DNA of 40,489 nt, taken from IMG/VR virus record IMGVR_UViG_3300025018_000051, positions 1 to 40,489 of that record; one strand, given 5' to 3'. The notes below the pieces were generated by a model, which saw only the letters and a list, made by a program, of their open reading frames with translations, did not search any database and was not told the origin of the DNA. Positions 1,674-17,531 of this stretch are shown here, piece by piece. Positions within the stretch are counted from its first letter, which is position 1. The number at the start of each line of letters is the position of its first letter. This DNA comes from a virus. A program made the translations under genes and the position numbers.

Positions 1674-3331
1674 TGAACTTCCTTCAAAATCTCTTTGCAC
1701 CTAGAAGTGCTCCGATAGGTTATGGCACCTCTGCACAGATGGACATCCCTATTCAGTCGATTGATCCTGATACCGGGCTTCCGATTTCGGGACCAATTGT
1801 CAGTGGTCCTATGGTCGATACTCCTGCACAGCCACCTATGCAGCCGCCTCAAGGTATGCCTGCACCGCAAGACATGAGCAGTCTCGAAGCCATGCTTGCA
1901 GGCGGTGGAGGGAACCTGGACCAGAACAATGTCTTGCAAGCAATCGGAGGTTCCCCTGTTGCGCCTACTGCCCAAATCCCTGCTCAACAGCAAGTTGCAC
2001 AAGAACCGCCACGTCAGCGTAGGTCATTCCTCGATACGGTCGGAGGAATTGCGGACGTGCTCGCGCGCGTTGGTGGTGCAGAAGCTCTTTATCAGCCGAC
2101 TCTGGATGCGCGCCAAGACCGCGAACTTGCAATGGAAGATCGCCAGCGTAGTATCGACATGGACGCGATGCGGCAGCAACTCGCGCAGCAGCAAATCGAC
2201 GCGGGAGAAATGTCTGCCGAAGAAGTCCAACGATCCCGATTAGCGCAAGCATTGGGTGCAGTGGCCTCCAACCCCGAAGCAATTGCTGAACTTCCACAGT
2301 TTTTGCATGAAATAGGTGTCGATCCTCAAAAGGCGGCAGGGATACTTGCGGCAATCGAGCGGAACCCGGAAGCCGCAAGTATTTTCGCACAGGCACTTGG
2401 ATTTCAGGAGCCTCAGCAAGGTTCCCTTTCCTCTGCAAGACAAAACTATGCAGAATATCAGAACATTCTCCAGACTCAGGGACCAGAAGCAGCAGAGCAA
2501 TTCTTGCGCATGGCGTCCCCGCAAGCCACAGTCACCCCATATCAGCAAGAACAAATCGGTCTTAAGCGTGATGAACTAGACCTGCGCCGCGATCAATTTG
2601 AAACCGAGCAATCTCTTCCGCAGGCACAAAACCTCACGCCAGGACAAAAGCGTCTGGATCAGGCGTTTGCGGTATCTTATGAAGATTATACGGCGCGTGG
2701 CGGATATGCCGATGTTGAAAAGAGTATTGAGCAGCTTCGAGACGTTCGGAACATACTCGGAGGTGGTGGAGTTACAGGAGGTATCTCGGGGTATCTACCC
2801 ACTGTGGTTCGATCAGTATTTAATGAAAAATCTGTTTCCGCTCAAGAAGCGGTTGAAGAAGTCGTGCAGCGGAACCTGCGCCTGATCCTCGGTGCGCAGT
2901 TTACGAACGAAGAAGGTAAGCGCCTGATCGAACGAGCTTACAATCCCCGCCTTAGCGAAAGTGAAAATATCAAACGACTTGACCGCCTCATTACTCAGAT
3001 TGAAGAAGGTGCAGCAGCAACCGAAAGCGCATCTCAATACTTTGAACAGAACGGAACTCTCACAGGTTGGCAGGGAAATTTGCCCGGAAGGTCTGCACCG
3101 GCAGCACAGCCGGCGCGCAGGCAGTCAAGAGGCTCAAGCCGCGCAAATCGAAGCAGTGGAGGAGCGCGCGGTGGAGGAGCGCGCGGTGGAGGAGCGCGCG
3201 GTGGAGGAGCACGCGGTGGAGGGTCGAACATTTCTCGATACCGTATCCCGGTCGGGACAGTGCGAAACGGATATAAATATATAGGGGGCAATCCCGCTAA
3301 CCGAAATAATTGGCGTCGGGTGAGGAATTGA
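1673..3331 (+). CDS. internal-virion/ejection-type protein, Pro/Gln-rich N-terminus, long helical middle, C-terminal (GGARG)n
   Basis: 552-aa ORF with a TGATG overlap onto the upstream gene. It is Q/E/A/R-rich and looks coiled-coil. It sits between the tail fibre genes and the largest virion protein. Function is inferred from position only. Confidence 0.45.
   Translation: MNFLQNLFAPRSAPIGYGTSAQMDIPIQSIDPDTGLPISGPIVSGPMVDTPAQPPMQPPQGMPAPQDMSSLEAMLAGGGGNLDQNNVLQAIGGSPVAPTAQIPAQQQVAQEPPRQRRSFLDTVGGIADVLARVGGAEALYQPTLDARQDRELAMEDRQRSIDMDAMRQQLAQQQIDAGEMSAEEVQRSRLAQALGAVASNPEAIAELPQFLHEIGVDPQKAAGILAAIERNPEAASIFAQALGFQEPQQGSLSSARQNYAEYQNILQTQGPEAAEQFLRMASPQATVTPYQQEQIGLKRDELDLRRDQFETEQSLPQAQNLTPGQKRLDQAFAVSYEDYTARGGYADVEKSIEQLRDVRNILGGGGVTGGISGYLPTVVRSVFNEKSVSAQEAVEEVVQRNLRLILGAQFTNEEGKRLIERAYNPRLSESENIKRLDRLITQIEEGAAATESASQYFEQNGTLTGWQGNLPGRSAPAAQPARRQSRGSSRANRSSGGARGGGARGGGARGGGARGGGSNISRYRIPVGTVRNGYKYIGGNPANRNNWRRVRN
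3156..3224 (+). repeat. 15-bp tandem repeat x4.5 (GTGGAGGAGCGCGCG) encoding GGARG repeats
   Basis: Units lie at 3156, 3171, 3186 and 3201 (one mismatch in the last), plus a partial fifth. The translation is SGGARGGGARGGGARGGGARGGGS. Confidence 0.9.
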
Positions 3332-3332
3332 T

Positions 3333-5969
3333 ATGCCCCAAGGTAATGCCCGGAATAGAAATACAGATTTCAGCGGCTTGTCGCAGAGTGACGCGCGCAG
3401 GATTTATCTTGCGGCCCGCAAACGTGTGGAGGACGCTAACAAGGATAATCCCGCAGTCATGCGTAGGGAATTGCGTAGGCTCGACAGTTTTCCTGCCATA
3501 ACAAATCTACGAAACCGTGCCGGTGTGCAAGGGACTCCTGAAACCGAAACGACGCCGCCAAGGCGCAGGGAATTGGTGCGGGAAACCGCGCGTAGAGTTG
3601 TCGAGCGCGAAAGAAATCAGGACTCGATTATTCCCCTGCAATTGCGAGACATAAGGGCAGGTGTGACTTCGGGAATTAACAACGCTTTTCTTGGCCTTCC
3701 AGCGCGAGCAGCCGCAGCAATCACAGGAACCGACAATGATTTGATGCAGGAATATTCCGACCAGCAAGGTCAGCGCGCTCCTGTGACAAATTTCCTGAGT
3801 ACGATCGGTGCAAGTCTGCCTCTGGGTGGCGGACTGCTAGGCGGCGGTGCAGCCGCAGCGAACACCTTGAGGGCTTCGGCAAATCCGGTAGCACAAACAG
3901 CGGGGCGAGCCCTTCAATCCGCAGGACGTGCCGCGGCGGTCCAGCGGGGTCAGACAGTCCGAAATGTTGTCCGCACGGCAGGAGGCGGCGCAGCGATCGG
4001 AGGAACCACGGCGGTAGTCAAAGAGCGTGATGTTGCCGAAGGTGCCGGATACGGTGCGGTCGGTGGTGTGGCCGGTGGTGCAGCAATCCGGGGTGGTCAG
4101 ATACTTGCGGGAAAAGCCTCTGAGGTTTTGCGCGCGTCCGGCGCAGATGCAATCTTGCGACGTTACACGAGCACAACCCGCGAAGAATTACAGCGCAGAC
4201 TTAGCCAATTCCGCAGAGAAGGTCGCGCGGAACCAACAATGTATGAATTGCTCGATCTGGAAGATCGGCAAAGCTTGCAGGGGGTGATCGGTCGGCTGGA
4301 CCGGAGGCAACAGAACCGCGGCGCGGAATTGGCAAGGGAACGTGTGGAAGGTATTCCGGGCGAGGTCGCGCAGGTTGTCCGCAATGAAACTCGTGGTCAA
4401 AGATCAGCGAATGTGCGCAACCTGGCTTCCGCGCAGGCATCGTCGCGCGGTGAAGCCACTCCAACCATGCCCGAAGCGCGCCTTGCTGTAGGTGCATCTG
4501 ACAATCCCACCCGTCTTGCCCAATTGCGCAGGCAGGAAGCCCGCAACATCATGGGTCCGTATGACGAACGGCGGGCGGTTGATAATTTCACTGAATTGCT
4601 CCCTACCGAATTGCGGCAAGGAAAAAGTCCGGGCGAGATTGTCGAAGAAATAACTGATCCCGAAGTTGCAGCAATTATCAGGGCTGCGGCTGGATCTGCG
4701 CGTATTCGGACAGACGGTGAAGGTCTGACAATCCGCGAAGTTTCAGGTATGATTGAGAGCCTGAAAAACAATCTGAACCGTGCCACGGTTATTGAACGCG
4801 GGAATATCCAGCGCGCGATTGATCATCTTGAGGATACGATTACCGAGCGGCACCCTGACGTTGCACCGGCTCTTGCCCGGATGAATGAGAATTGGGCTGC
4901 ACGTTCCCGTCAAATGGAAGGTATGCAGGAAATCCGCCCACAGGCTAATGTAAACCCCAATACGCAGCGAAACCTTCAACGCTCGGAGAACGTGTTTGAG
5001 ACGCCAGAAGGCGGCGTAGGTCGCGCTATGGGGCAACGCAGCGCATTGCTCGATGATCTTGGCGCTGCAACCACTCCTGCGCTCGGAACTGTGCGCGAAC
5101 TTGCACAAAGCCCGACCGCAGCACGGAACATCGCTCAGAACCTTGGACAGCCGGCAACTCGCAATATCACAGCCGCAGCAAGGGCGCAGAGTGAAAGTGC
5201 GCGTAGGCTTGCAACAGCAATCCGCGATCCCAATGCAGATACCAGCGGTATTGAAGCCGGGGATCTGGCATTGCTAGCGGCTGGCCTCAGCCCGAACTCG
5301 ATGGACATTACCAAAGCCAGGAGTATCGCGCTTATCCTCGATCGCTTCGGGCGCAGTATTCCTGAAAATCGTTCACGAACGATCGTGGATATGCTCTTTT
5401 CCCGCAATCCTGCGATGACACAGAAGGCAATAGAAGCCTTGAGAACCGAAGCCGGTGATGAGGGTATGGATGCACTTGTTTCAATTGCCCGGATGACCGC
5501 AGGTGGTGTGCTCGGAGCCGATGCAGGCAACGAAGATGCCCCCAGAACGCCGCAGCAGCAAGACGATCCCCTGAGCGAAATGGAAACTGATATTCCAGCC
5601 GCCGATGAGACAGGACCGTGGGATGATTTTGCGGAAGACAGCCCAGCAGCCGATGAAGCAGGACCATGGGATGATTTTGCGGAAGGAGCAAACCCATATG
5701 GTCGCAGGGTAATTGAAGAAGTTTTCCCCCAAGCCGAAGTGACGGACGATTTGCGTGACCCTGATAGTGAACTAGGACGTGCAAATCCTAGCAGTTACCA
5801 CAATCATACCGATGGTGCAGTGGATATTCGCCCCATTCCAGGCATGAGTTTCAATGAGTTTGTTGATACTCTGGAAGCCAAGGGATACAAAGTAATCGAG
5901 GCAAGGGATGAAGTGAAAAATCCTTCTCGACACGCTACGGGTGCTCATTGGCACGTAGTAATTCAATAA
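3333..5969 (+). CDS. large internal-virion/ejection protein with C-terminal LAS/M15-like zinc peptidase (peptidoglycan hydrolase) domain
   Basis: 878 aa, the largest structural ORF. The last ~65 aa read SSYHNHTDGAVDIRP...NPSRHATGAHWHVV, an H-x(n)-D ... H-x-H metal-ligand pattern like VanY/M15 peptidases (from memory). The rest is Ala/Arg/Gly-rich. Confidence 0.5.
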   Translation: MPQGNARNRNTDFSGLSQSDARRIYLAARKRVEDANKDNPAVMRRELRRLDSFPAITNLRNRAGVQGTPETETTPPRRRELVRETARRVVERERNQDSIIPLQLRDIRAGVTSGINNAFLGLPARAAAAITGTDNDLMQEYSDQQGQRAPVTNFLSTIGASLPLGGGLLGGGAAAANTLRASANPVAQTAGRALQSAGRAAAVQRGQTVRNVVRTAGGGAAIGGTTAVVKERDVAEGAGYGAVGGVAGGAAIRGGQILAGKASEVLRASGADAILRRYTSTTREELQRRLSQFRREGRAEPTMYELLDLEDRQSLQGVIGRLDRRQQNRGAELARERVEGIPGEVAQVVRNETRGQRSANVRNLASAQASSRGEATPTMPEARLAVGASDNPTRLAQLRRQEARNIMGPYDERRAVDNFTELLPTELRQGKSPGEIVEEITDPEVAAIIRAAAGSARIRTDGEGLTIREVSGMIESLKNNLNRATVIERGNIQRAIDHLEDTITERHPDVAPALARMNENWAARSRQMEGMQEIRPQANVNPNTQRNLQRSENVFETPEGGVGRAMGQRSALLDDLGAATTPALGTVRELAQSPTAARNIAQNLGQPATRNITAAARAQSESARRLATAIRDPNADTSGIEAGDLALLAAGLSPNSMDITKARSIALILDRFGRSIPENRSRTIVDMLFSRNPAMTQKAIEALRTEAGDEGMDALVSIARMTAGGVLGADAGNEDAPRTPQQQDDPLSEMETDIPAADETGPWDDFAEDSPAADEAGPWDDFAEGANPYGRRVIEEVFPQAEVTDDLRDPDSELGRANPSSYHNHTDGAVDIRPIPGMSFNEFVDTLEAKGYKVIEARDEVKNPSRHATGAHWHVVIQ
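5595..5690 (+). repeat. 48-bp tandem duplication inside the 878-aa gene
   Basis: 5595-5642 and 5643-5690 both encode PAADE(T/A)GPWDDFAE(D/G) and differ at only a few nucleotides. Confidence 0.9.
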
Positions 5970-8169: not shown

Positions 8170-8344
8170 GTGTGAATCTCCCTTTGTCTTGACGTGCTTT
8201 GGCGCGCTTCAACGCTTCATCACCATAAAACCATGCGTAAGCTTTTTCGGCGTCCTTACCGAATTTGCGTCGCGCTTTTTCGAGTGTTTTAGGTGGTTGA
8301 TCCACGTCCTCCGACATAATTTCTTCTAATGTGTATATTTTCAT
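8162..8344 (-). CDS. hypothetical 60-aa protein
   Basis: ORF whose ATG overlaps the RuvC-like gene's stop (ATGA). Charged and helical. No motif recognised. Confidence 0.5.
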   Translation of the reverse strand: MKIYTLEEIMSEDVDQPPKTLEKARRKFGKDAEKAYAWFYGDEALKRAKARQDKGRFTHD

Positions 8345-8814
8345 AAAAATTTCCTTCCATAATGCGCCAGCAAGGCCGCTTCGGCGCGTCCATCGTCTTT
8401 AACCCTGCCAATATCCTTTGAGGTCTGCGGATAGAGGCTACGACACTTCTCCCGGCTTGCGCCCTTGTCACTCTTGAGTAATCCGAGTTTACCTTTCCAG
8501 ACGCTCGGAGTGACAAAATGCACCGGGCAGCTTGTCACTGACATGACGATACCGTGAGCAAAGCCAAGGGAACGACCAAAAGTGAACATCGAAGTCACAC
8601 CCTGTCCTGGACGCGCTGCAATATCCTCGATTACAACCATATCGACCGACGCCTGATCCAGTGCGAAATACCACATTTCAGCCCACAGGTTCCATGCCGG
8701 CTTGGCTTTTCCTTTGATCTTGACCATTGGCACATCGAAAAATTCAGCCGATCTGTCAGGATGCAGGATCGCCAATGCACCGGATTTACCAGGATCAATT
8801 CCAGCGATAATCAT
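8341..8814 (-). CDS. RuvC-like Holliday-junction resolvase
   Basis: MIIAGIDPGKSGALAIL..., ...MVVIEDIAARPGQG..., ...DDGRAEAALLAHY match the catalytic Asp/Glu blocks of RuvC-fold resolvases. ATGA overlap with the polymerase gene. Confidence 0.8.
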   Translation of the reverse strand: MIIAGIDPGKSGALAILHPDRSAEFFDVPMVKIKGKAKPAWNLWAEMWYFALDQASVDMVVIEDIAARPGQGVTSMFTFGRSLGFAHGIVMSVTSCPVHFVTPSVWKGKLGLLKSDKGASREKCRSLYPQTSKDIGRVKDDGRAEAALLAHYGRKFL

Positions 8815-11753
8815 TTCCGATACCTCAACATCTTTTCCACTTCGGCCTTGACCCGGAAGCGGCGTTCACGAGCCCAAGGCTCAATATCTTCCATCACTTG
8901 TTTGACAGTTTCGACCAGATCGGGCCGGTCGGTTTCCTCGAATACCAGTTCATCGTGAACCTTGAAAATCGTGTTCAATCCCGCAGCTTCGGCACGTTTC
9001 ATAGCTTCAACCATAAGGCACCGCGCACTGCCCTGGATGCAATCAGCAGTTAGCATTCCGTGCCAAGCCATGTGCCGTCTGAATTTCTTGCCCTGATAGG
9101 ACATGAAGGTCCAAGACGGTCGTTCATCGCCCTGTGGCGTGAGACTGATGGCCTTGCGCGGGCGATGATACCAAATCTTGCGACCCGAAGGTAGGCGCAT
9201 CGTGAGAAAGTCGTTTTCCTTACGAAACTCGATCCCGGCATATTCATAGGCTTTGGCGTGATCGCAATAGACCGCACTCGAACTCGCTTCCCATAGACCA
9301 TACCAGAATTTCGGCACCATCGGTGCGACCTCTTGCCGGTAGGTGTTAATCGCGAGCATCGCCAAGTCGATGCTCTCATTCGGTGCGAACCGCGCACGGA
9401 AGCCAACCGGACCCAAACCGTATCCTGAATTATGGACGATCATTGGACCTTCCGTAGTCATCACCGTAAATCGGTTTCTAGGACCGGCATTCACAAGATC
9501 GTAAACAGGCTCGCAACATTTCGATTTCTTCGAGTGCTTCATCCAATCGACCTTGCAGGGTGGATATGTCCCTACGATTGTTGTGGTTTTGTGTTCGGGT
9601 CGCGAAGCGTAAATTACCCGGCTCATAATTTCCATCATTATTGATGCGGTCGATTTCCATAGATGGATCATCCCATCCTTCAAGTGTGAGAAGGTAGGCA
9701 AGAAACTTTCGTTTGGGTTCAGTTGAATTTTTACTCCATCTTCCTCCCGATGAATCCCATTCTGGATACACTCTAATGCCTCGTCCTGCATAGTGTTTGG
9801 CAAATTTGCTACTCCCACCAACGCGGCAGCGAGATTGGATTGAGGAAATACGATTGAGCAAACGTATCCTGTGGGTTGTATTCGCACAAATGTCTGCGTA
9901 TCCCCAGTATTTTTTTTGTGCCGTATTTGCTGCTTTTTTCTTTGCACAAGAATTGCAGCCTTGGGAACGTCCACTTTTGAAATTGTATTCCTCCACAAAG
10001 ACCGGACCATTCCCACAATTGCATTCACAAACTGGCCCGTAAAAATACCCTTGTGGTGTGTATGCGTAACCGAGCACGGTCCACGATCCTTGGCGAAGGC
10101 CAGGGTTCGGGAAATCATCTGTCCGGTCGCTTCGCCTGCGGGGAACCACGACACCCCATCGAACACCGCGTGATCGGTCGTGAGGCGAAGGCCGCAAATA
10201 TTCAAAGTTTCCTTCAAGCCCTTGTATGCGAGTCCGTTGTGCGTAACCCATTCTTCTCCGTCCCATAGCAAATCCTCTTGTTGAACCTCGACAATGGCTT
10301 TCCAACCATTAGAAGTTAATACTTGAGTTGGGGCAGCTAGGCAACCAAGAAACGTGTTCTTGCCAATCTGGCCTTCTTTGGCTTGTACTGGATCCTTGCG
10401 ATTGATCGGACGCTTGAAAATCATTGAAGCGGTTTCGGAATACACATCGAGCCCTGAGTGCATCTGCTCAACCCGGTCGTGCTGTCCTGCCATCGAAAGC
10501 AGGTTGCGCGCTTCGATGGCTGCATAGTCACTGCCGACCAGAACCTTGCCTTGCTCCGGCACGATGCAGGATCGTAAGGATGAAATGATTGCCGAGAATA
10601 TATCCTGCCCCCAAATCTCCCTGATATGTTCCACGTTGCGGGTCAGGATTGCATCGGCAAGAATATCAGCCGGGTTTCGACCAGTTGATTCTGCAATCTC
10701 TTGCAGGTGTTCATGTTCCCCGATCTCACCGCGAGGATAATTCTGTATCTGGATCAATCGGCCAGCATCACGACCAGTTCGAGCACCATGATACTGTGTG
10801 GTATATCTTACCCGCCCATCACCGCCAGCACAGCGCAGCATTCGATCCAGCTTGGCAACCGAAGAGGAGGCCAAAGCGCGCCGAAGCGTCAGAACCTCGT
10901 GAACGTGATAAGGGAGAGGATCAGAAAAATATTCAATTCCAAATTCGTCATCTGGATCAAGGATTGCGTTCAAGGTTTCTTTCTTCATGTCACCAAGAGC
11001 AACACCTTGATCGTTTACCCAATTCAATACTTTCTCACGCTGAGTGGGATTTAATCCGGTCAATTCACGGAAGCGCTCGACCATCGGCACTCGCACCTGA
11101 TCCAGTACGTTGATGCAAGCATGCACAAATTCAACGTCGATTTTAATACCGCGCTGATTGATTTTCTGATCGAGTATCCATGTATGACGTTCGGAAGGTC
11201 CGAGCCCTTTGGTCGAAACATAGACGCCGTATTGAGCGTTGGCATCGTCACCGCAATAATCATAAAGACGTTTCAGATTATATTCGTTGTGCTGCGACCA
11301 GCCACCTTTCTGGTCAGGCTTACGCATGACGAGCATGTGCCTGTGGCCATCCATATCCTTCTTAACAGGCAATTCCAGCGCCGTTACGAGTGCATCGAGC
11401 CCTAGCGGTAGTCCTTTCATTGCAGCGACTGCCATAGTGTCGTGCCAGCGCTCAGGCGGCAATTCAGGATACCCAATCGGGACCATATGAAATTTCCACA
11501 TGGCCTGCTCGAAGCCAGCATTATGGGCAACAAAGATCACTTCAGAATCATTGCACAAAGTAAGCAATTCCACGTCGAGCGAGTGCATCTGTTTTTCAGA
11601 AAGAACACGAGTAGGTTGCGGCTTTCCGTCAATCACAACCTTCATTGAAATACACAACGGGAAGGTTGTCATGTCGGCAGCGTATTTCCATGCTCCAACC
11701 TTCACCAGGTCCGTACGGCTGGCGGTTTCAAAATCGACTACAACGTATTTCAA
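8811..11753 (-). CDS. family-A DNA polymerase (3'-5' exo + pol) interrupted by an intein in motif B
   Basis: ExoI VVDFET, ExoII-like FVAHNAGFE, motif A GSDYAAIEARNL, motif B split as QIGKNTFLG / SGYGLG, and motif C KVHDELVFE. The TTG start at 11753 is required to include ExoI, because an in-frame TAA lies directly upstream. Confidence 0.9.
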   Translation of the reverse strand: MKYVVVDFETASRTDLVKVGAWKYAADMTTFPLCISMKVVIDGKPQPTRVLSEKQMHSLDVELLTLCNDSEVIFVAHNAGFEQAMWKFHMVPIGYPELPPERWHDTMAVAAMKGLPLGLDALVTALELPVKKDMDGHRHMLVMRKPDQKGGWSQHNEYNLKRLYDYCGDDANAQYGVYVSTKGLGPSERHTWILDQKINQRGIKIDVEFVHACINVLDQVRVPMVERFRELTGLNPTQREKVLNWVNDQGVALGDMKKETLNAILDPDDEFGIEYFSDPLPYHVHEVLTLRRALASSSVAKLDRMLRCAGGDGRVRYTTQYHGARTGRDAGRLIQIQNYPRGEIGEHEHLQEIAESTGRNPADILADAILTRNVEHIREIWGQDIFSAIISSLRSCIVPEQGKVLVGSDYAAIEARNLLSMAGQHDRVEQMHSGLDVYSETASMIFKRPINRKDPVQAKEGQIGKNTFLGCLAAPTQVLTSNGWKAIVEVQQEDLLWDGEEWVTHNGLAYKGLKETLNICGLRLTTDHAVFDGVSWFPAGEATGQMISRTLAFAKDRGPCSVTHTHHKGIFTGQFVNAIVGMVRSLWRNTISKVDVPKAAILVQRKKQQIRHKKNTGDTQTFVRIQPTGYVCSIVFPQSNLAAALVGVANLPNTMQDEALECIQNGIHREEDGVKIQLNPNESFLPTFSHLKDGMIHLWKSTASIMMEIMSRVIYASRPEHKTTTIVGTYPPCKVDWMKHSKKSKCCEPVYDLVNAGPRNRFTVMTTEGPMIVHNSGYGLGPVGFRARFAPNESIDLAMLAINTYRQEVAPMVPKFWYGLWEASSSAVYCDHAKAYEYAGIEFRKENDFLTMRLPSGRKIWYHRPRKAISLTPQGDERPSWTFMSYQGKKFRRHMAWHGMLTADCIQGSARCLMVEAMKRAEAAGLNTIFKVHDELVFEETDRPDLVETVKQVMEDIEPWARERRFRVKAEVEKMLRYRK
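9429..10343 (-). mobile_element. class-1 intein (305 codons) in PolA motif B
   Basis: Cys1 codon at 10343-10341 (CLAAPTQVLTSNGW = block A), LRLTTDHAVF (block B), EPVYDLVNAGPRNRFTV (block F), GPMIVHN|S (block G, +1 Ser codon at 9428-9426). The exteins rejoin to ...GKNTFLGSGYGLG... Confidence 0.85.
9478..10077 (-). CDS. HNH-type homing endonuclease ORF encoded in the -1 frame inside the PolA intein (start uncertain; ORF open up to 10305)
   Basis: WTVLGYAYTPQGYFYGPVCECNCGNGPVF...KSGRSQGCNSC, then YAGRGIRVYPEW and EIDRINNDGNYEPGNLRFATRTQNHNNRR. These are hallmarks of free-standing phage HNH endonucleases (from memory). The candidate GTG start at 10077 lies 9 nt after AAGGA. Confidence 0.7.
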   Translation of the reverse strand: MLGYAYTPQGYFYGPVCECNCGNGPVFVEEYNFKSGRSQGCNSCAKKKAANTAQKKYWGYADICANTTHRIRLLNRISSIQSRCRVGGSSKFAKHYAGRGIRVYPEWDSSGGRWSKNSTEPKRKFLAYLLTLEGWDDPSMEIDRINNDGNYEPGNLRFATRTQNHNNRRDISTLQGRLDEALEEIEMLRACLRSCECRS

Positions 11754-11928: not shown

Positions 11929-12657
11929 TCACCAGGCGGGTTCTTCGGTCTTTTCCAAATCAGAATTGCTCGGAGCCCCTGCGGTCGGGTCGAAATCGGA
12001 ATATCCAGCGAAATCACCAAATACCTGACTGTTATCTGCACCGCCCCCACTTGCCAGCCGTTCACCCTTGCGAACGAACAAGCAATTTTGCAGGTAGGCA
12101 GTTACTCCGTCCTTGGCATCCAGAGTCTTGCGCCGGAAGGGTTTGAAGGCAATCGCCGGAACCACATAGGCGCCGGGATAGAACAAATCCTTGCCAGCCG
12201 AAGCGCGAGCATGTTCCTCATCGGGAATATCGACGATCTTCCCACCTTCCAGTTTTGCAAGTGCAACATCAAACTGCGATGAAGCGGTCAAGATACCGGC
12301 ATAGGGCACATAGATTTCCGCACGCTTCTCGGCTTTTTCCTTGATCTTGAAAACCTCATCTGGACTTTTGCCAGTCGCATCGAGTTCAGCCTTCTGCATT
12401 GCCCGTTGACCGGCCATCTTGCCGCTCTGACAGGCCAAGTAGTAATCACCGGGGTTGCCGGAAAAACTGCCCATTTCCGCAGTGATGCTGTTGACCATGA
12501 TTGCCACGATCGCATCGAAATCTTCCTTCTCGATACCGAACGTGCCGGAAAATTTCGGTGTAGCATTCACCACACCGCGAGGGGCAGATTTTGTCGTGAC
12601 CGACGAATAGATAAGCCGCGCAGGCTTGACGAGAGTGTAGCGAATTGTTTCAGCCAT
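11929..12657 (-). CDS. DUF2815-type phage ssDNA-binding protein (probable)
   Basis: ATG12657 is preceded by AGGAAG-N5. The product starts MAETIRYTLVKPARLIYSSV... and has the acidic/aromatic tail ...DLEKTEEPAW. It sits between a DUF2800-type nuclease and PolA, a gene trio I recall as conserved. Confidence 0.55.
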   Translation of the reverse strand: MAETIRYTLVKPARLIYSSVTTKSAPRGVVNATPKFSGTFGIEKEDFDAIVAIMVNSITAEMGSFSGNPGDYYLACQSGKMAGQRAMQKAELDATGKSPDEVFKIKEKAEKRAEIYVPYAGILTASSQFDVALAKLEGGKIVDIPDEEHARASAGKDLFYPGAYVVPAIAFKPFRRKTLDAKDGVTAYLQNCLFVRKGERLASGGGADNSQVFGDFAGYSDFDPTAGAPSNSDLEKTEEPAW

Positions 12658-12729
12658 TGTTACTTCCTTTTGTCCCTTCGTTGACTTTCTCATTCCGATA
12701 CGGGGACGCAGCATCAGGTGAGTGTTTGG

Positions 12730-14885: not shown

Positions 14886-17531
14886 TCATTTTTCCTTCTG
14901 GTCTAAAACCTTGTGAATTGTGTTCATTTTTTCGAGAGCCCGAACCAGTATCTTTTCTGAAATAGATCCAGGCGCCACGAAAATTTCTGCCGTAACGACA
15001 TTCTCTTGACCAAACCTGTCTAACCGGGAAACTGCTTGTTCATTCTGTGCAGGCACCCAATCAGGTTCAGCCAAATAGCACCGGGAACAAACCTTCTGTA
15101 AACCATCCAAGCCGGTGCCCGCTGCCTGGATATTACCTATGAACACGCGCACCTTATCGTCATTCACAAAATCGTCAACGGCTTTTTCTCTTGCAGCCGG
15201 AGATTTTCGTCCGTCGATCCGAACGGTTCCAAATCGGGACAATTGCTGCTCAAAGATTTCTAACACGTCGATATGCCATCCAAAAATCGCTAGCTTTTCG
15301 TCCGAACCTTCGAGAAAATCCTTGGCGTATTCGGCAATCTGCGGAGCAAGAGCGGTTCCCATCAATCGCCGCGCTTCGGCAATATGTCCGAGAATTTCAA
15401 AATCTTTCGTGGTCTGTACATCGTCAATTGAGATACCTAGCAAATCCTCTGCATCGAGCGCGGATTTCACAGATCCGTTTTCCTCACAGCGCACAATGGC
15501 GTAACGTGGCGGCTTCATGAATTTCAGTACGTCTTTCTTTTCATGCCGTGCCATGATGTTGACCCTCAGCCGGTTTTGCAATTCCTGTTCGAGCGATGTG
15601 CTTTCCAGCTTGAAGCGTTTACCCTCGATCGTTTTCATATCGGCTTGCCGGTTGTAGCGCTCCTTGAATTTTTCCTCGCTGGCAAAGTCAATTGCCTGCC
15701 AATCGAAAAACCGGAAAAGCACATACGCCTCGGATGGACGGTTCAAAAGCAAGGTTCCGGTCAAAGCCAAATGTTCGCGGCAATGTCCTGCTATGGCTTT
15801 CATCTTGTGTTCACCGTGATGATATTCGCCGCGGGAATTGCCAATGATCGCGCGCGTTGTCAGTGCATTTATGTTCTTCATCTTGTGAGCTTCATCGCAA
15901 ATCAGAACGTCCCATTCATATTTTGAGATTGCGCGAATGATCGCCGGATTTCTCGCAGTGTCGTAGCTAAGTATCTGGTAATGCGCGGTCGGATGAATAC
16001 CGTCCTTGACCTTGAGCATGGTCGAAACCTTGACCATCGGGATAGTTGACCATGCCTTTATCTGCGCAGCCCATTGCAGCCGCACCGACGCTGGCACGAT
16101 CACAAGCACCCGCTGCGCCTCACGCTCGTTGCAATAAGCAATTGAGGTCGGCGTATTGTGCGTGAGAGTATATCCACGAGTTACAAACAAGCCCCGAGGA
16201 TCTGAAATTTTGATGCAGCGTTGGGATTCCTCTCCGTCCTGCACAATTTCAGAAACCGCCAATTTGATATTGGAAGGACGCCATTGTGCGGCTTTACGAG
16301 ACAAATTGAAGGGGCAGAAGTGAGTCTTCACATTAACCTGATAGTCTATACCCTTACCGTCCGACCTTTCATAAACTCGCACTTTGGCCCAACCACCTAA
16401 AGACCTCACCAACTGCGCAACGTCCTGCGCCAACTGCGCAGACTTGGTGTGGTAGGTCGTCCGATTGCGAATACACGATCCGTCAGTGTCCATAAGGCCC
16501 GAGAGCAAGTCCATTCGCTGACTGATTGAGCCCATGAAATAGATTTCAGGGATGAAACGGTCAGGACTTTTGACGTTCAATCCGAGAGCCTTAATCTTAT
16601 GATAAAATGCTGCGTCTTTAGTCGGTTTGGAAATTGCATATTGCGGACAGGCAGGATGCCTGTTTTCGTTGAAATGAAAATCAGAAGGTAAATACTTTTT
16701 TGCATTTTCGATAACTTCCGCATCAATATCCGGTGTCGAGATTGCAATTCTTGTTCCAGTGAGTGAACCATCACCAATCAATGCCCCAAGCAAATACGGG
16801 TGTATGTCAAAAGGTATTGGAGCATGGTCGATAGGCTGGACCAAGGGAACATAGAACCGTGCTATCCGGCGAGATAATCCGTTACGTGTCCCTCCACCGA
16901 CAGTCAGACCCCAATCCATAATTTGTTGAGTGGTCAAAACTTCTGTCTTAAAACTATGACCTCCACGTCGCTCGACCTCCCACAAATGTTCAGCATCGCA
17001 TCGAACATATCGACCGTCTGAAAAGATCACTTTCCAGACGGTGCTTTTTTGCGGTGGATATACTGCCTCGACCTGAACAGGCTTCCCGTCATGTCCATAG
17101 ACCCAATCACCTGCCGACAATTCTGCATTTTCCACCCAGCCCTTAGGTGTCAAAACAGGCTCGGAAACAGGCAACCGCTTCCCAAGTCCGGGTTGATCAC
17201 CGTTGATCCCGCCTTTCCGGTCCAGCAAATAATCAAGCGTGGCTTTCTGATAATCCCATAATTCGCAGCCTGGTGGAAGTTTCGCAGTGCCGATACCATC
17301 GAGAGCTCGCGATGCGTCGATCTTCTTGCGATAGGCGCCGAGATTGGGAAGGTCTTTGTCCGCCAGATCAGCAACAGAATAGGGATTGTTCGACCACAAC
17401 ACAGCTTCATGCCGGCTGCTCGCGCTCGTGGAAAATACGAGCCCGCGATAGGCCATGATACCGGCAATTTCCTGCTTGCGGGCAATCGGCACTCGCAAAA
17501 TGAAATTAGGTCCGTTCTCCGAGACGTTCAT
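14886..17531 (-). CDS. SNF2-family helicase interrupted by an intein in the Walker-A loop
   Basis: GDQPGLGK / TPTSIAY (motif I split), LICDEAHKMKN (DEAH), LALTGTLLLNR, and the C-terminal helicase motifs FIGNIQAAGTGLDGLQ and QAVSRLDRFGQ. Confidence 0.9.
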   Translation of the reverse strand: MNVSENGPNFILRVPIARKQEIAGIMAYRGLVFSTSASSRHEAVLWSNNPYSVADLADKDLPNLGAYRKKIDASRALDGIGTAKLPPGCELWDYQKATLDYLLDRKGGINGDQPGLGKRLPVSEPVLTPKGWVENAELSAGDWVYGHDGKPVQVEAVYPPQKSTVWKVIFSDGRYVRCDAEHLWEVERRGGHSFKTEVLTTQQIMDWGLTVGGGTRNGLSRRIARFYVPLVQPIDHAPIPFDIHPYLLGALIGDGSLTGTRIAISTPDIDAEVIENAKKYLPSDFHFNENRHPACPQYAISKPTKDAAFYHKIKALGLNVKSPDRFIPEIYFMGSISQRMDLLSGLMDTDGSCIRNRTTYHTKSAQLAQDVAQLVRSLGGWAKVRVYERSDGKGIDYQVNVKTHFCPFNLSRKAAQWRPSNIKLAVSEIVQDGEESQRCIKISDPRGLFVTRGYTLTHNTPTSIAYCNEREAQRVLVIVPASVRLQWAAQIKAWSTIPMVKVSTMLKVKDGIHPTAHYQILSYDTARNPAIIRAISKYEWDVLICDEAHKMKNINALTTRAIIGNSRGEYHHGEHKMKAIAGHCREHLALTGTLLLNRPSEAYVLFRFFDWQAIDFASEEKFKERYNRQADMKTIEGKRFKLESTSLEQELQNRLRVNIMARHEKKDVLKFMKPPRYAIVRCEENGSVKSALDAEDLLGISIDDVQTTKDFEILGHIAEARRLMGTALAPQIAEYAKDFLEGSDEKLAIFGWHIDVLEIFEQQLSRFGTVRIDGRKSPAAREKAVDDFVNDDKVRVFIGNIQAAGTGLDGLQKVCSRCYLAEPDWVPAQNEQAVSRLDRFGQENVVTAEIFVAPGSISEKILVRALEKMNTIHKVLDQKEK
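16155..17177 (-). mobile_element. 341-codon intein with LAGLIDADG endonuclease domain, class-3-like (no Cys/Ser/Thr at position 1)
   Basis: Inserted between GLGK (Lys codon 17180-17178) and T (+1). It starts RLPVSEPVLTPKGW. Block B is CDAEHLW, LAGLIDADG motifs are YLLGALIGDGSL and LLSGLMDTDGS, block F is QRCIKISDPRGLFV, and block G is YTLTHN|T (Asn codon 16157-16155). Confidence 0.8.

Follow-up and report, generated by a model that had tools for sequence, protein, structure and literature searches.

A canonical intein bears its endonuclease as a domain within its own polypeptide. How else can an intein hold its endonuclease? Some actinobacteriophage inteins carry an endonuclease VII-like open reading frame (ORF) 'in reading frame 3 relative to the intein', and antisense LAGLIDADG and VSR-like cases appear in the same study, which proposes that free-standing endonuclease genes invaded inteins (Gosselin, Arsenault and Gogarten, bioRxiv 10.1101/2025.01.02.630785). 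A cyanobacterial dnaX intein has an out-of-frame LAGLIDADG gene under frame-specific selection, and full alleles occur there side by side with mini and empty ones (Phillips et al., bioRxiv 10.64898/2026.09.14.751524); Gorbalenya 1998 is credited there with the first proposal. Outside inteins, the Gogarten laboratory, from which both preprints come, has described 'hidden' out-of-frame HNH insertions in DNA methylases of mycobacteriophages (ShiLan domain; Pacc40 gp60; PMC11855218). In fractured genes, a free-standing endonuclease gene comes between the halves of a split intein (Dassa et al. 2009, PMC2677866). Here, we describe an intein in the family-A DNA polymerase (PolA) gene of IMG/VR virus record IMGVR_UViG_3300025018_000051, of which the whole stretch of 40,489 nucleotides (nt), positions 1 to 40,489, was analysed and is called the window below. 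The window belongs to an uncultured phage, whose portal protein is at most 33% identical to portals of cultured phages. Our reading, to which we give a probability of about 0.72, is that a mobile class-1 intein sits in motif B of the polymerase and that its homing-endonuclease gene is a separate one, overprinted in the -1 frame, instead of an in-frame domain. This reading is based on the openness of both frames, on selection in the nested frame, on a layout conserved among phages, on precise presence or absence of the intein, and on flanks that look like the result of gene conversion. The original prediction, made from the letters of the window, was not aware of an intein and endonuclease organised in this way; the two preprints cited above do contain out-of-frame endonucleases in inteins. 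The architecture is already known, though first described in 2025-26, and what is new is a very widespread PolA member with an unusual active-site motif. In the papers searched, neither family-A polymerase inteins nor Jerseyviruses nor the endonuclease family of the nested protein are described with this architecture.

The polymerase gene reads through the intein as one ORF (Table 1), which matches Pfam DNA_pol_A (E = 5e-14) and the DNA polymerase family phrog_17 (E = 3e-65), and the unbroken 980-codon ORF of the original prediction is hence upheld. Megablast of the gene against phage records gave no match; its relatives are distant at the DNA level, so that searches at the protein level were needed. 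The intein starts with Cys1 (CLAAPTQVLT), continues with TTDH in block B, VYDLVNAGPRNRF in block F and MIVHN in block G, and is followed by Ser at the +1 position; a nucleophile at position 1, TxxH, C-terminal His-Asn, and Cys, Ser or Thr at +1, the residues that characterise a class-1 intein, are all in place. Among 52 unique related inteins, Cys1 and TxxH are found in every one (52/52 each) and His-Asn in 50/52, while the +1 residue is Cys in 46 and Ser in four (Cys or Ser in 50/52). From these conserved catalytic residues, and from the interruption of the essential motif B, we infer that the precursor is spliced. In its splicing blocks, in its insertion into a conserved catalytic motif and in its presumed homing life cycle, the element is like a canonical intein, from which it differs in that a separate translation product is proposed for its endonuclease. 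The linker between the splicing blocks in the polymerase frame matches no Pfam or NCBIfam domain, in agreement with the earlier remark that it lacks an endonuclease motif, and its only PHROG matches are to intein-containing families.

On the same strand, wholly within the intein and within the polymerase ORF, a second ORF lies in the -1 frame, for (11753-10305) mod 3 = 2. Mechanically delimited, it covers 9478..10305 (-), 275 codons, opening at TTG 10305 and closing at TAG 9480-9478 inside the codons of block F (VNAGPRNRF); its frame, its coordinates and the position of its stop are just as first noticed. Both frames are open over 828 nt, whereas the original prediction, right about the openness, had put its length at ~600 nt. 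Stops in the -1 frame number 30 in the 469 codons of the N-extein, 10 in the 204 of the C-extein and only 3 in the 304 of the intein, and none lies inside the open frame of 276 codons. When the gene was shuffled synonymously so as to preserve the polymerase-frame protein, the HNH frame remained open in 0 of 5000 cases, with 10.3 stops on average, and when the HNH protein was preserved instead, the polymerase frame remained open in 1%. The double openness exceeds chance. An endonuclease ORF on the same strand, out of frame between the splicing blocks (frame 3 corresponds to -1), is shared with the actinobacteriophage inteins, but unlike them the nested ORF here overlaps ~55 codons of the N-terminal splicing domain and ends within block F.

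Is such a layout peculiar to the window? A tblastn search of phage genomes with the nested protein gave matches inside the 'intein-containing DNA polymerase precursor' of Jerseyviruses (155 Salmonella records) and in Vibrio phage 97.13, with ~40% identity and E ~1e-35; there, too, the polymerase ORF is continuous and the match is in its -1 frame. A scan of viral contigs, guided by a profile, gave 80 loci. In 62 of the scan loci HNH is at offset 2 (-1 frame) from N- and C-blocks of an intein that share a frame with each other; five have it in the +1 frame, and ~18 are free-standing genes. All the tested host genes are family-A polymerases, interrupted at the same Pfam profile position, ~200-218; on the N-extein side, the DNA_pol_A match of loci other than the window stops at profile position ~212-218, where the insertion lies. 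Where HNH is embedded in the -1 frame, not one stop interrupts the 13,218 polymerase-frame codons that lie over the HNH match. In free-standing homologues, the corresponding frame is interrupted by 105 stops in 2,506 codons (42 per 1000); the third frame has ~85 stops per 1000 codons in the embedded and free-standing sets alike. The -1 layout is real and common to hundreds of phages. Whether related inteins keep both frames open had been set down as a check, and they do so in the 62 loci; the inference of an out-of-frame nested gene under a stop-free host frame is supported by these ~60 loci, by selection on the HNH frame and by the conserved splicing residues.

One may suspect that two compensating indels, from sequencing or assembly, mask an ordinary in-frame HNH domain in the window. 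The region does contain homopolymer runs, and one old Jersey-like genome (L039) shows frame disruptions. The same offset, however, is found in ~60 independent assemblies and in more than 150 isolate genomes, always without stops in the polymerase frame; a clean in-frame version of HNH is seen in none of the scan loci, and a wrongly read frame would hold ~42 stops per 1000 codons. Because the layout recurs in ~60 loci without stops, paired sequencing errors, which had been named together with the original prediction as what could undo it, cannot explain it, and we give such an artefact practically no weight. L039 itself (IMGVR_UViG_638275545_000001) has at ~3216-4086 a deletion of ~81 nt by which the N-part of the intein is fused in frame to HNH (…QNDKAKD-QLLVQCDCG…), and frame changes disrupt its polymerase ORF; we take it for either a defective allele or an old sequence of low quality.

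The five loci of the scan with +1-frame nesting (L066, L072, L074, L081 and L083, with the HNH match at ~3501-3900 in each) are also PolA inteins at the same polymerase site, and their polymerase frame is stop-free as well (0 stops in 578 codons). In phage APSE-2 (L084, DQ092617), P46 at 250-672 is an ORF of the nested HNH family in the +1 frame of the intein in DNA polymerase P45; this intein occupies a second polymerase site (...IVHN|CENICQAAARD), and the record annotates P46 only as 'conserved hypothetical protein'.

On which of the two frames does selection act? Between the window and the intein-bearing allele L004, the core of the overlap differs at 41, 23 and 88 sites in HNH codon positions 1, 2 and 3, respectively. 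HNH position 3 is position 2 of the polymerase frame, where each change alters a polymerase-frame residue, and the translations of the pair are 77% identical when read in the HNH frame, as against 45% in the polymerase frame. The clustering at HNH position 3 is repeated in eleven pairs from the tested clades, and conservation by codon position favours the HNH frame, just as had been proposed for testing. Since the differences pile up at the third position of HNH codons, the HNH frame is under purifying selection and the nested gene is functional. The linker in the polymerase frame is carried along as a passenger, and the only constraint visible on it is to have no stops. Where the overlap extends over the N-terminal splicing domain the substitution pattern is mixed, which fits dual constraint and a disordered leader of the nested protein. 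An overlapping ORF inside an intein, with purifying selection on the endonuclease frame and a relaxed intein frame, is what has been described for the dnaX intein. The latter, a LAGLIDADG case in a cellular gene with another arrangement of frame and strand, differs from the window in that the nested protein here is not homologous to its endonuclease.

The same data bear on the idea that the nested ORF of the window is a relic in recent decay, which owes its openness to nothing but the essential polymerase and the short time elapsed. Decayed cases are in fact known: in L055 and L056 (3501-4154 in both), the nested frame has an internal stop and the YGGRGI segment is deleted while the polymerase frame is open, which looks like the degeneration stage of a homing cycle. 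The ORF of the window, on the other hand, is intact over its 276 codons and keeps every invariant residue of the family, its differences from relatives of 66-79% identity fall mainly on third positions of HNH codons, and the shuffles described above speak against openness by constraint on the polymerase alone. We consider a relic very improbable.

What kind of protein is encoded by the nested frame? It matches PHROG families labelled HNH (phrog_374, E = 8e-26; phrog_3377, E = 5e-13), and Foldseek of its model against BFVD finds phage proteins annotated as HNH, AP2 or homing endonucleases at E ~1e-10, the top match being a 247-amino-acid 'uncharacterized protein' of Salmonella phage LPSE1. The label HNH, as used in the original prediction, is based on the matches in these two collections. 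Of the 479 homologues that a metagenome protein collection contains at E<=1e-5, hardly any bears a name or a Pfam domain, and no close relative that has been characterised came to light. An AlphaFold2 (AF2) model built on an alignment of 102 family members has a mean predicted local distance difference test score (pLDDT) of 84, being confident for residues ~50-255 and below 50 for residues 11-38. The four cysteines of a zinc-ribbon-like element are kept in at least 90% of the 102 members. Over the segment EIDRINNDGNYEPGNLRFATRTQNHN, the model has a strand at 204-207, a strand at 219-222 and a helix at 224-229, and D206, R207, N218 and N230 are invariant across the 102 aligned members, whether embedded or free-standing. 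By this resemblance, the nested product is an HNH-like protein of the homing-endonuclease type and a candidate nuclease. It is to be noted that the actinobacteriophage endonucleases are of another kind, T4 endonuclease VII-like with a CDHDH...CNDCN motif, while here a zinc-ribbon protein with a DR-N-N motif falls into other PHROGs. Thus the features of the published out-of-frame endonucleases, i.e., a nested ORF, a stop-free host frame and frame-specific selection, are all found in the window, and the endonuclease family is a different one.

More closely connected is the hidden ORF of Pacc40 gp60, a distant homologue of the nested protein (28% identity by tblastn, E = 1e-4). Like the window, the methylase insertions have a stop-free host frame over an out-of-frame HNH-like ORF, and they raise the same question of how this ORF is translated. 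They have no splicing domains, however, and are thought to be retained in the host protein (PMC11855218), whereas the passenger peptide here can be removed by the intein.

For translation of the nested gene, an internal start is likely, namely the conserved ATG at 10251, which overlies a Trp codon and is preceded by GGAG (Table 1). It is formed by GAA-TGG, encoding Glu-Trp of LWDGEEW in the intein; ATG 10266, with AAGAGGA upstream, is also open, and these ATGs lie 54-59 codons upstream of the nested core. An ATG 52-60 codons upstream of the conserved core is present in 45 of 48 unique embedded loci. It comes either as xxA-TGG at the second Trp of LWDGxxW or, two codons later, as GTA-TGC, the latter in a clade with Trp-Val-Cys-His (WVCH), in which Val is always encoded by GTA. 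The conserved ATG is the first start available in the Jerseyviruses, in L058 and in L064, owing to a stop shortly before it. Shine-Dalgarno-like pairing at ATG 10251 amounts to -6.6 kcal/mol, within the top 4% of positions in the gene; the median across loci is also -6.6 kcal/mol, and in 40/47 loci the pairing is among the strongest 10% of positions within its gene. GTG 10077, the start first suggested, lies inside a conserved and confidently modelled N-terminal strand, which would be removed by starting there, and ATG 10251 (or 10266) is preferred. An internal promoter for the nested gene is unsupported, as no sigma-70-like site was found in 9300-10800, and so is a group I intron or other RNA element, as no Rfam family matches in the window.

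Another route would be programmed -1 frameshifting or transcriptional slippage, by which HNH would be made as a fusion with the N-extein and the N-terminal part of the intein. The nested frame is in fact -1 relative to the polymerase in most loci, and the overlap in the window includes A6 runs and an A8 run, correctly placed by the original prediction at 9910-9917, which offered slippage as its alternative. But the conserved zinc-ribbon cysteines are encoded upstream of the A8 run, so that homology in the HNH frame begins before it; from the point where the HNH frame opens up to the HNH core, the window has no slippery X XXY YYZ heptamer, and such heptamers occur in only 8/48 loci, at non-homologous positions. 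Moreover, six loci (the five PolA loci of the scan and APSE-2) carry the nested family in the +1 frame, and the conserved ATG is closely preceded by stops in several loci. The probability of such a fusion seems to be only a few percent.

Mobility of the intein was approached by a presence/absence scan that used the spliced extein as query. In 35 close relatives (64-90% extein identity), there is 0 nt between ...GKNTFLG and SGYGLG..., while the intein-bearing alleles, i.e., the window, L003, L004 and L005, have 915 nt at this junction. Because the empty alleles join exactly at GKNTFLG/SGYGLG, the boundaries of the intein are proven, and with them the 305-codon intein splitting motif B that had been predicted. 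In a neighbour-joining tree of exteins, intein-bearing alleles appear in three places, each beside an intein-free sister; the sister pairs L003/L098 and L004/L091 (intein-bearing/intein-free) are 99.2% and 94.7% identical. Intein-bearing and empty alleles side by side are known from the dnaX system, and a sporadic distribution suggesting ongoing transfer from the actinobacteriophage inteins. L003 and L098 have 8 and 5 mismatches in the 30-nt bins that flank the site, against 0-3 (mostly 0-2) in other bins, and in both flanks L003 resembles the other intein-bearing alleles. This pattern fits recent homing with short co-conversion tracts, in which the flanks would represent the target site. Sporadic presence among close alleles together with co-conversion of flanks is what is expected of a homing gene, and both are seen here.

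Intein-free alleles vary at the site itself (junction ~3130/3131), with GAIGKAT for GQIGKNT, the Ser codon AGC for TCN, or Asn at +1 (L087-L090, L092, L095, L098, L103, L107, L112; L102, L104, L106, L108, L110-L112, L118, L119). These variants are candidates for targets that resist cleavage or are incompatible with splicing.

Several observations weigh against our reading. The Pfam and NCBIfam HNH models do not match the nested ORF. The general-base His expected in the first strand of an HNH motif is replaced by Arg207 in 102/102 family members (codons of D206-R207 at 9646-9651 (-)); for the 'complete HNH enzyme' of the original prediction, the PHROG matches back the label HNH, while 'complete' claims too much. 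Foldseek of the nested model against PDB gave nothing significant (best E = 0.68; PacI HNH E = 1.8), probably owing to a flexible multi-domain model and a small motif, and the family profile against PDB sequences gave only a weak alignment to the HNH motif of I-HmuI (1u3e; E = 0.29). As in the actinobacteriophage inteins, the intein frame is stop-free and appears unstructured while the nested product folds confidently: the AF2 model of the polymerase-frame intein has a mean pLDDT of 40, and below 50 in the linker. Its alignment, however, has only 6 sequences, as a word-indexed protein search yielded few polymerase-frame homologues, and this uncontrolled contrast between the two models, with such a shallow alignment on one side, is suggestive. 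The ATG and GGAG of the proposed start are built from conserved intein codons (W-D-G-x-x-W), so that their conservation is partly a by-product of the polymerase frame. Finally, the flank pattern of L003 and L098 could also stem from precise loss of the intein or from selection for resistant target sites.

Judged by its invariant Arg, the family may use an unusual mechanism or may be no nuclease at all. One can then suppose that the nested protein is a DNA-binding relative that has lost catalysis, and now serves as a binder, a regulator or a partner of another nuclease, the intein persisting or moving by other means. This would agree with the invariant Asp-Arg in place of Asp/His-His of HNH enzymes and with the silence of Pfam, and the authors of PMC11855218 were likewise unsure whether the hidden ORF of Pacc40 is an HNH nuclease. 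Still, no aligned member has lost the Asp or either of the two Asn that correspond to metal-binding and structural residues, the sporadic distribution and the conversion-like flanks point to homing, and the family is widespread as free-standing phage genes, many of which are annotated, by annotation only, as HNH or homing endonucleases. We consider loss of catalysis unlikely, though it deserves to be kept in mind.

How would a mobile intein with a separate, overprinted endonuclease gene work? Ribosomes in the polymerase frame would translate the N-terminal splicing blocks, ~190 stop-free and structure-poor codons, and then blocks F and G, and the intein of 305 residues would splice out to leave a polymerase of 675 residues. 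On the same mRNA, other ribosomes would initiate internally at ATG 10251, or alternatively at 10266, with GGAG just upstream, and make a protein of 257-262 residues with a disordered leader, a zinc ribbon, helices and the HNH-like beta-beta-alpha motif. In a mixed infection, this protein might cut or nick intein-less polymerase alleles around ...GGCAAGAACACGTTTCTTGGT|TCAGGATACGG..., and repair might copy the intein with its nested gene and ~30 nt of each flank. The features on which this scheme is built are collected in Table 1.

Table 1. Coordinates of the polymerase gene, its intein and the nested gene in the window
Feature	Position	Strand	Remarks
Family-A DNA polymerase precursor ORF	8811..11753	minus	980 codons plus stop, uninterrupted across the intein
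N-extein	10344..11753	minus	470 codons; C-terminal end ...KEGQIGKNTFLG within motif B (O-helix Lys...Tyr-Gly motif)
Class-1 intein	9429..10343	minus	305 codons, 915 nt, in motif B
C-extein	8814..9428	minus	205 codons; N-terminal end SGYGLGPVGF
Polymerase-frame intein linker	9534..10091	minus	~residues 85-270, boundaries approximate; stop-free spacer, no recognisable domain
Nested HNH-like ORF	9478..10266	minus	-1 frame; 262 amino acids from ATG 10266 or 257 from ATG 10251
Proposed nested-gene start	10249..10259	minus	putative; GGAG 10259-10256, 4-nt spacer, ATG 10251-10249
Zinc-ribbon-like CxC...CxxC	9946..10023	minus	C82, C84, C104, C107 (262-amino-acid numbering); high pLDDT
HNH-like beta-beta-alpha motif EIDRINNDGNYEPGNLRFATRTQNHN	9577..9657	minus	invariant columns and AF2 strands/helix
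Presumed recognition/co-conversion zone, N-extein side	10344..10373	minus	last 30 nt of N-extein; L003/L098 mismatches
Presumed recognition/co-conversion zone, C-extein side	9399..9428	minus	first 30 nt of C-extein; L003/L098 mismatches

With the fractured genes, the locus shares an endonuclease of the free-standing type between the two halves of an intein, with its 3' end overlapping the coding region of the downstream half. A fractured host gene and its intein consist of two ORFs that are translated separately, and such an intein acts in trans; the intein here is contiguous, within a single uninterrupted polymerase frame of 980 codons. The PolA layout looks like an unsplit, alternative outcome of the same type of invasion. 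From the actinobacteriophage inteins, it differs further in its host genes and phyla: no family-A polymerase is among their 19 listed host genes, of which the polymerase-type ones are only DNA polymerase III alpha and a polymerase-beta-superfamily nucleotidyltransferase (10.1101/2025.01.02.630785). The PolA family is also much larger and includes cultured enterobacterial phages.

These findings fill a gap in annotation, as many Jerseyvirus records say only 'intein-containing DNA polymerase precursor', and the Ent1 record lists the intein as 'splicing domains' only, so that the endonuclease gene was missed. The nested ORF of LPSE1, called an uncharacterised protein, and P46 of APSE-2, a nested hypothetical, are now joined as one family. 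Since the layout is present in easily grown Salmonella and Escherichia coli phages, translation of the hidden endonuclease, homing drive and effects of the linker on splicing can be put to the test. The findings also support the idea that inteins acquire endonucleases through invasion by free-standing endonuclease genes, and the density of stops compared with free-standing homologues provides a clean and general signature for dual-coding mobile elements. It might even be, although we hold this as possible rather than probable, that PolA inteins with an overprinted gene of the zinc-ribbon, 'DR'-type HNH-like family are the largest and experimentally most tractable family of dual-coding inteins. 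Such a family would occupy two polymerase sites and both alternative frames, and would be spread over cultured Jerseyviruses of Salmonella and E. coli by the hundreds, the APSE phages of aphid symbionts, and many phages that are uncultured; its W-D-G-x-x-W codons would double as ribosome-binding site and start for an enzyme without the canonical general-base His, and it would represent a stable evolutionary state and not a fleeting intermediate between mini-, canonical and split inteins.

Around the polymerase gene, the window encodes a RuvC-like Holliday junction resolvase (phrog_1770) downstream at 8341-8814 (-), and upstream, at 11929-12714 (-), an ORF of 261 amino acids, which by position alone corresponds to the DUF2815 protein of Jerseyviruses. 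Further away, at 14886-17531 (-), an SNF2-type helicase gene has a canonical intein with an in-frame LAGLIDADG_3 domain (Pfam, amino acids 341-396), and helicase residues 104-460 cross-match unrelated intein-bearing PHROGs. As the helicase intein is canonical and the PolA intein dual-coding, one genome holds both kinds. Weaker matches of the nested protein (~29% identity) fall in annotated DNA polymerase genes of two phages of Gram-positive bacteria, H61 (Gardnerella phage vB_Gva_AB1) and H64 (Streptococcus phage Javan255), which may be further cases of the nested arrangement. A related Hint domain is found at another polymerase site (...GGKLVEN|C...HN|CVQAIARD) in P0123 and P0125, the former with a long linker and the latter as a mini-intein without linker. 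Finally, the PolA precursor of L041 (967-4890) has an extra LAGLIDADG_3 domain at amino acids 617-680, upstream of the motif B intein, which suggests that two differently built inteins reside in one polymerase gene.

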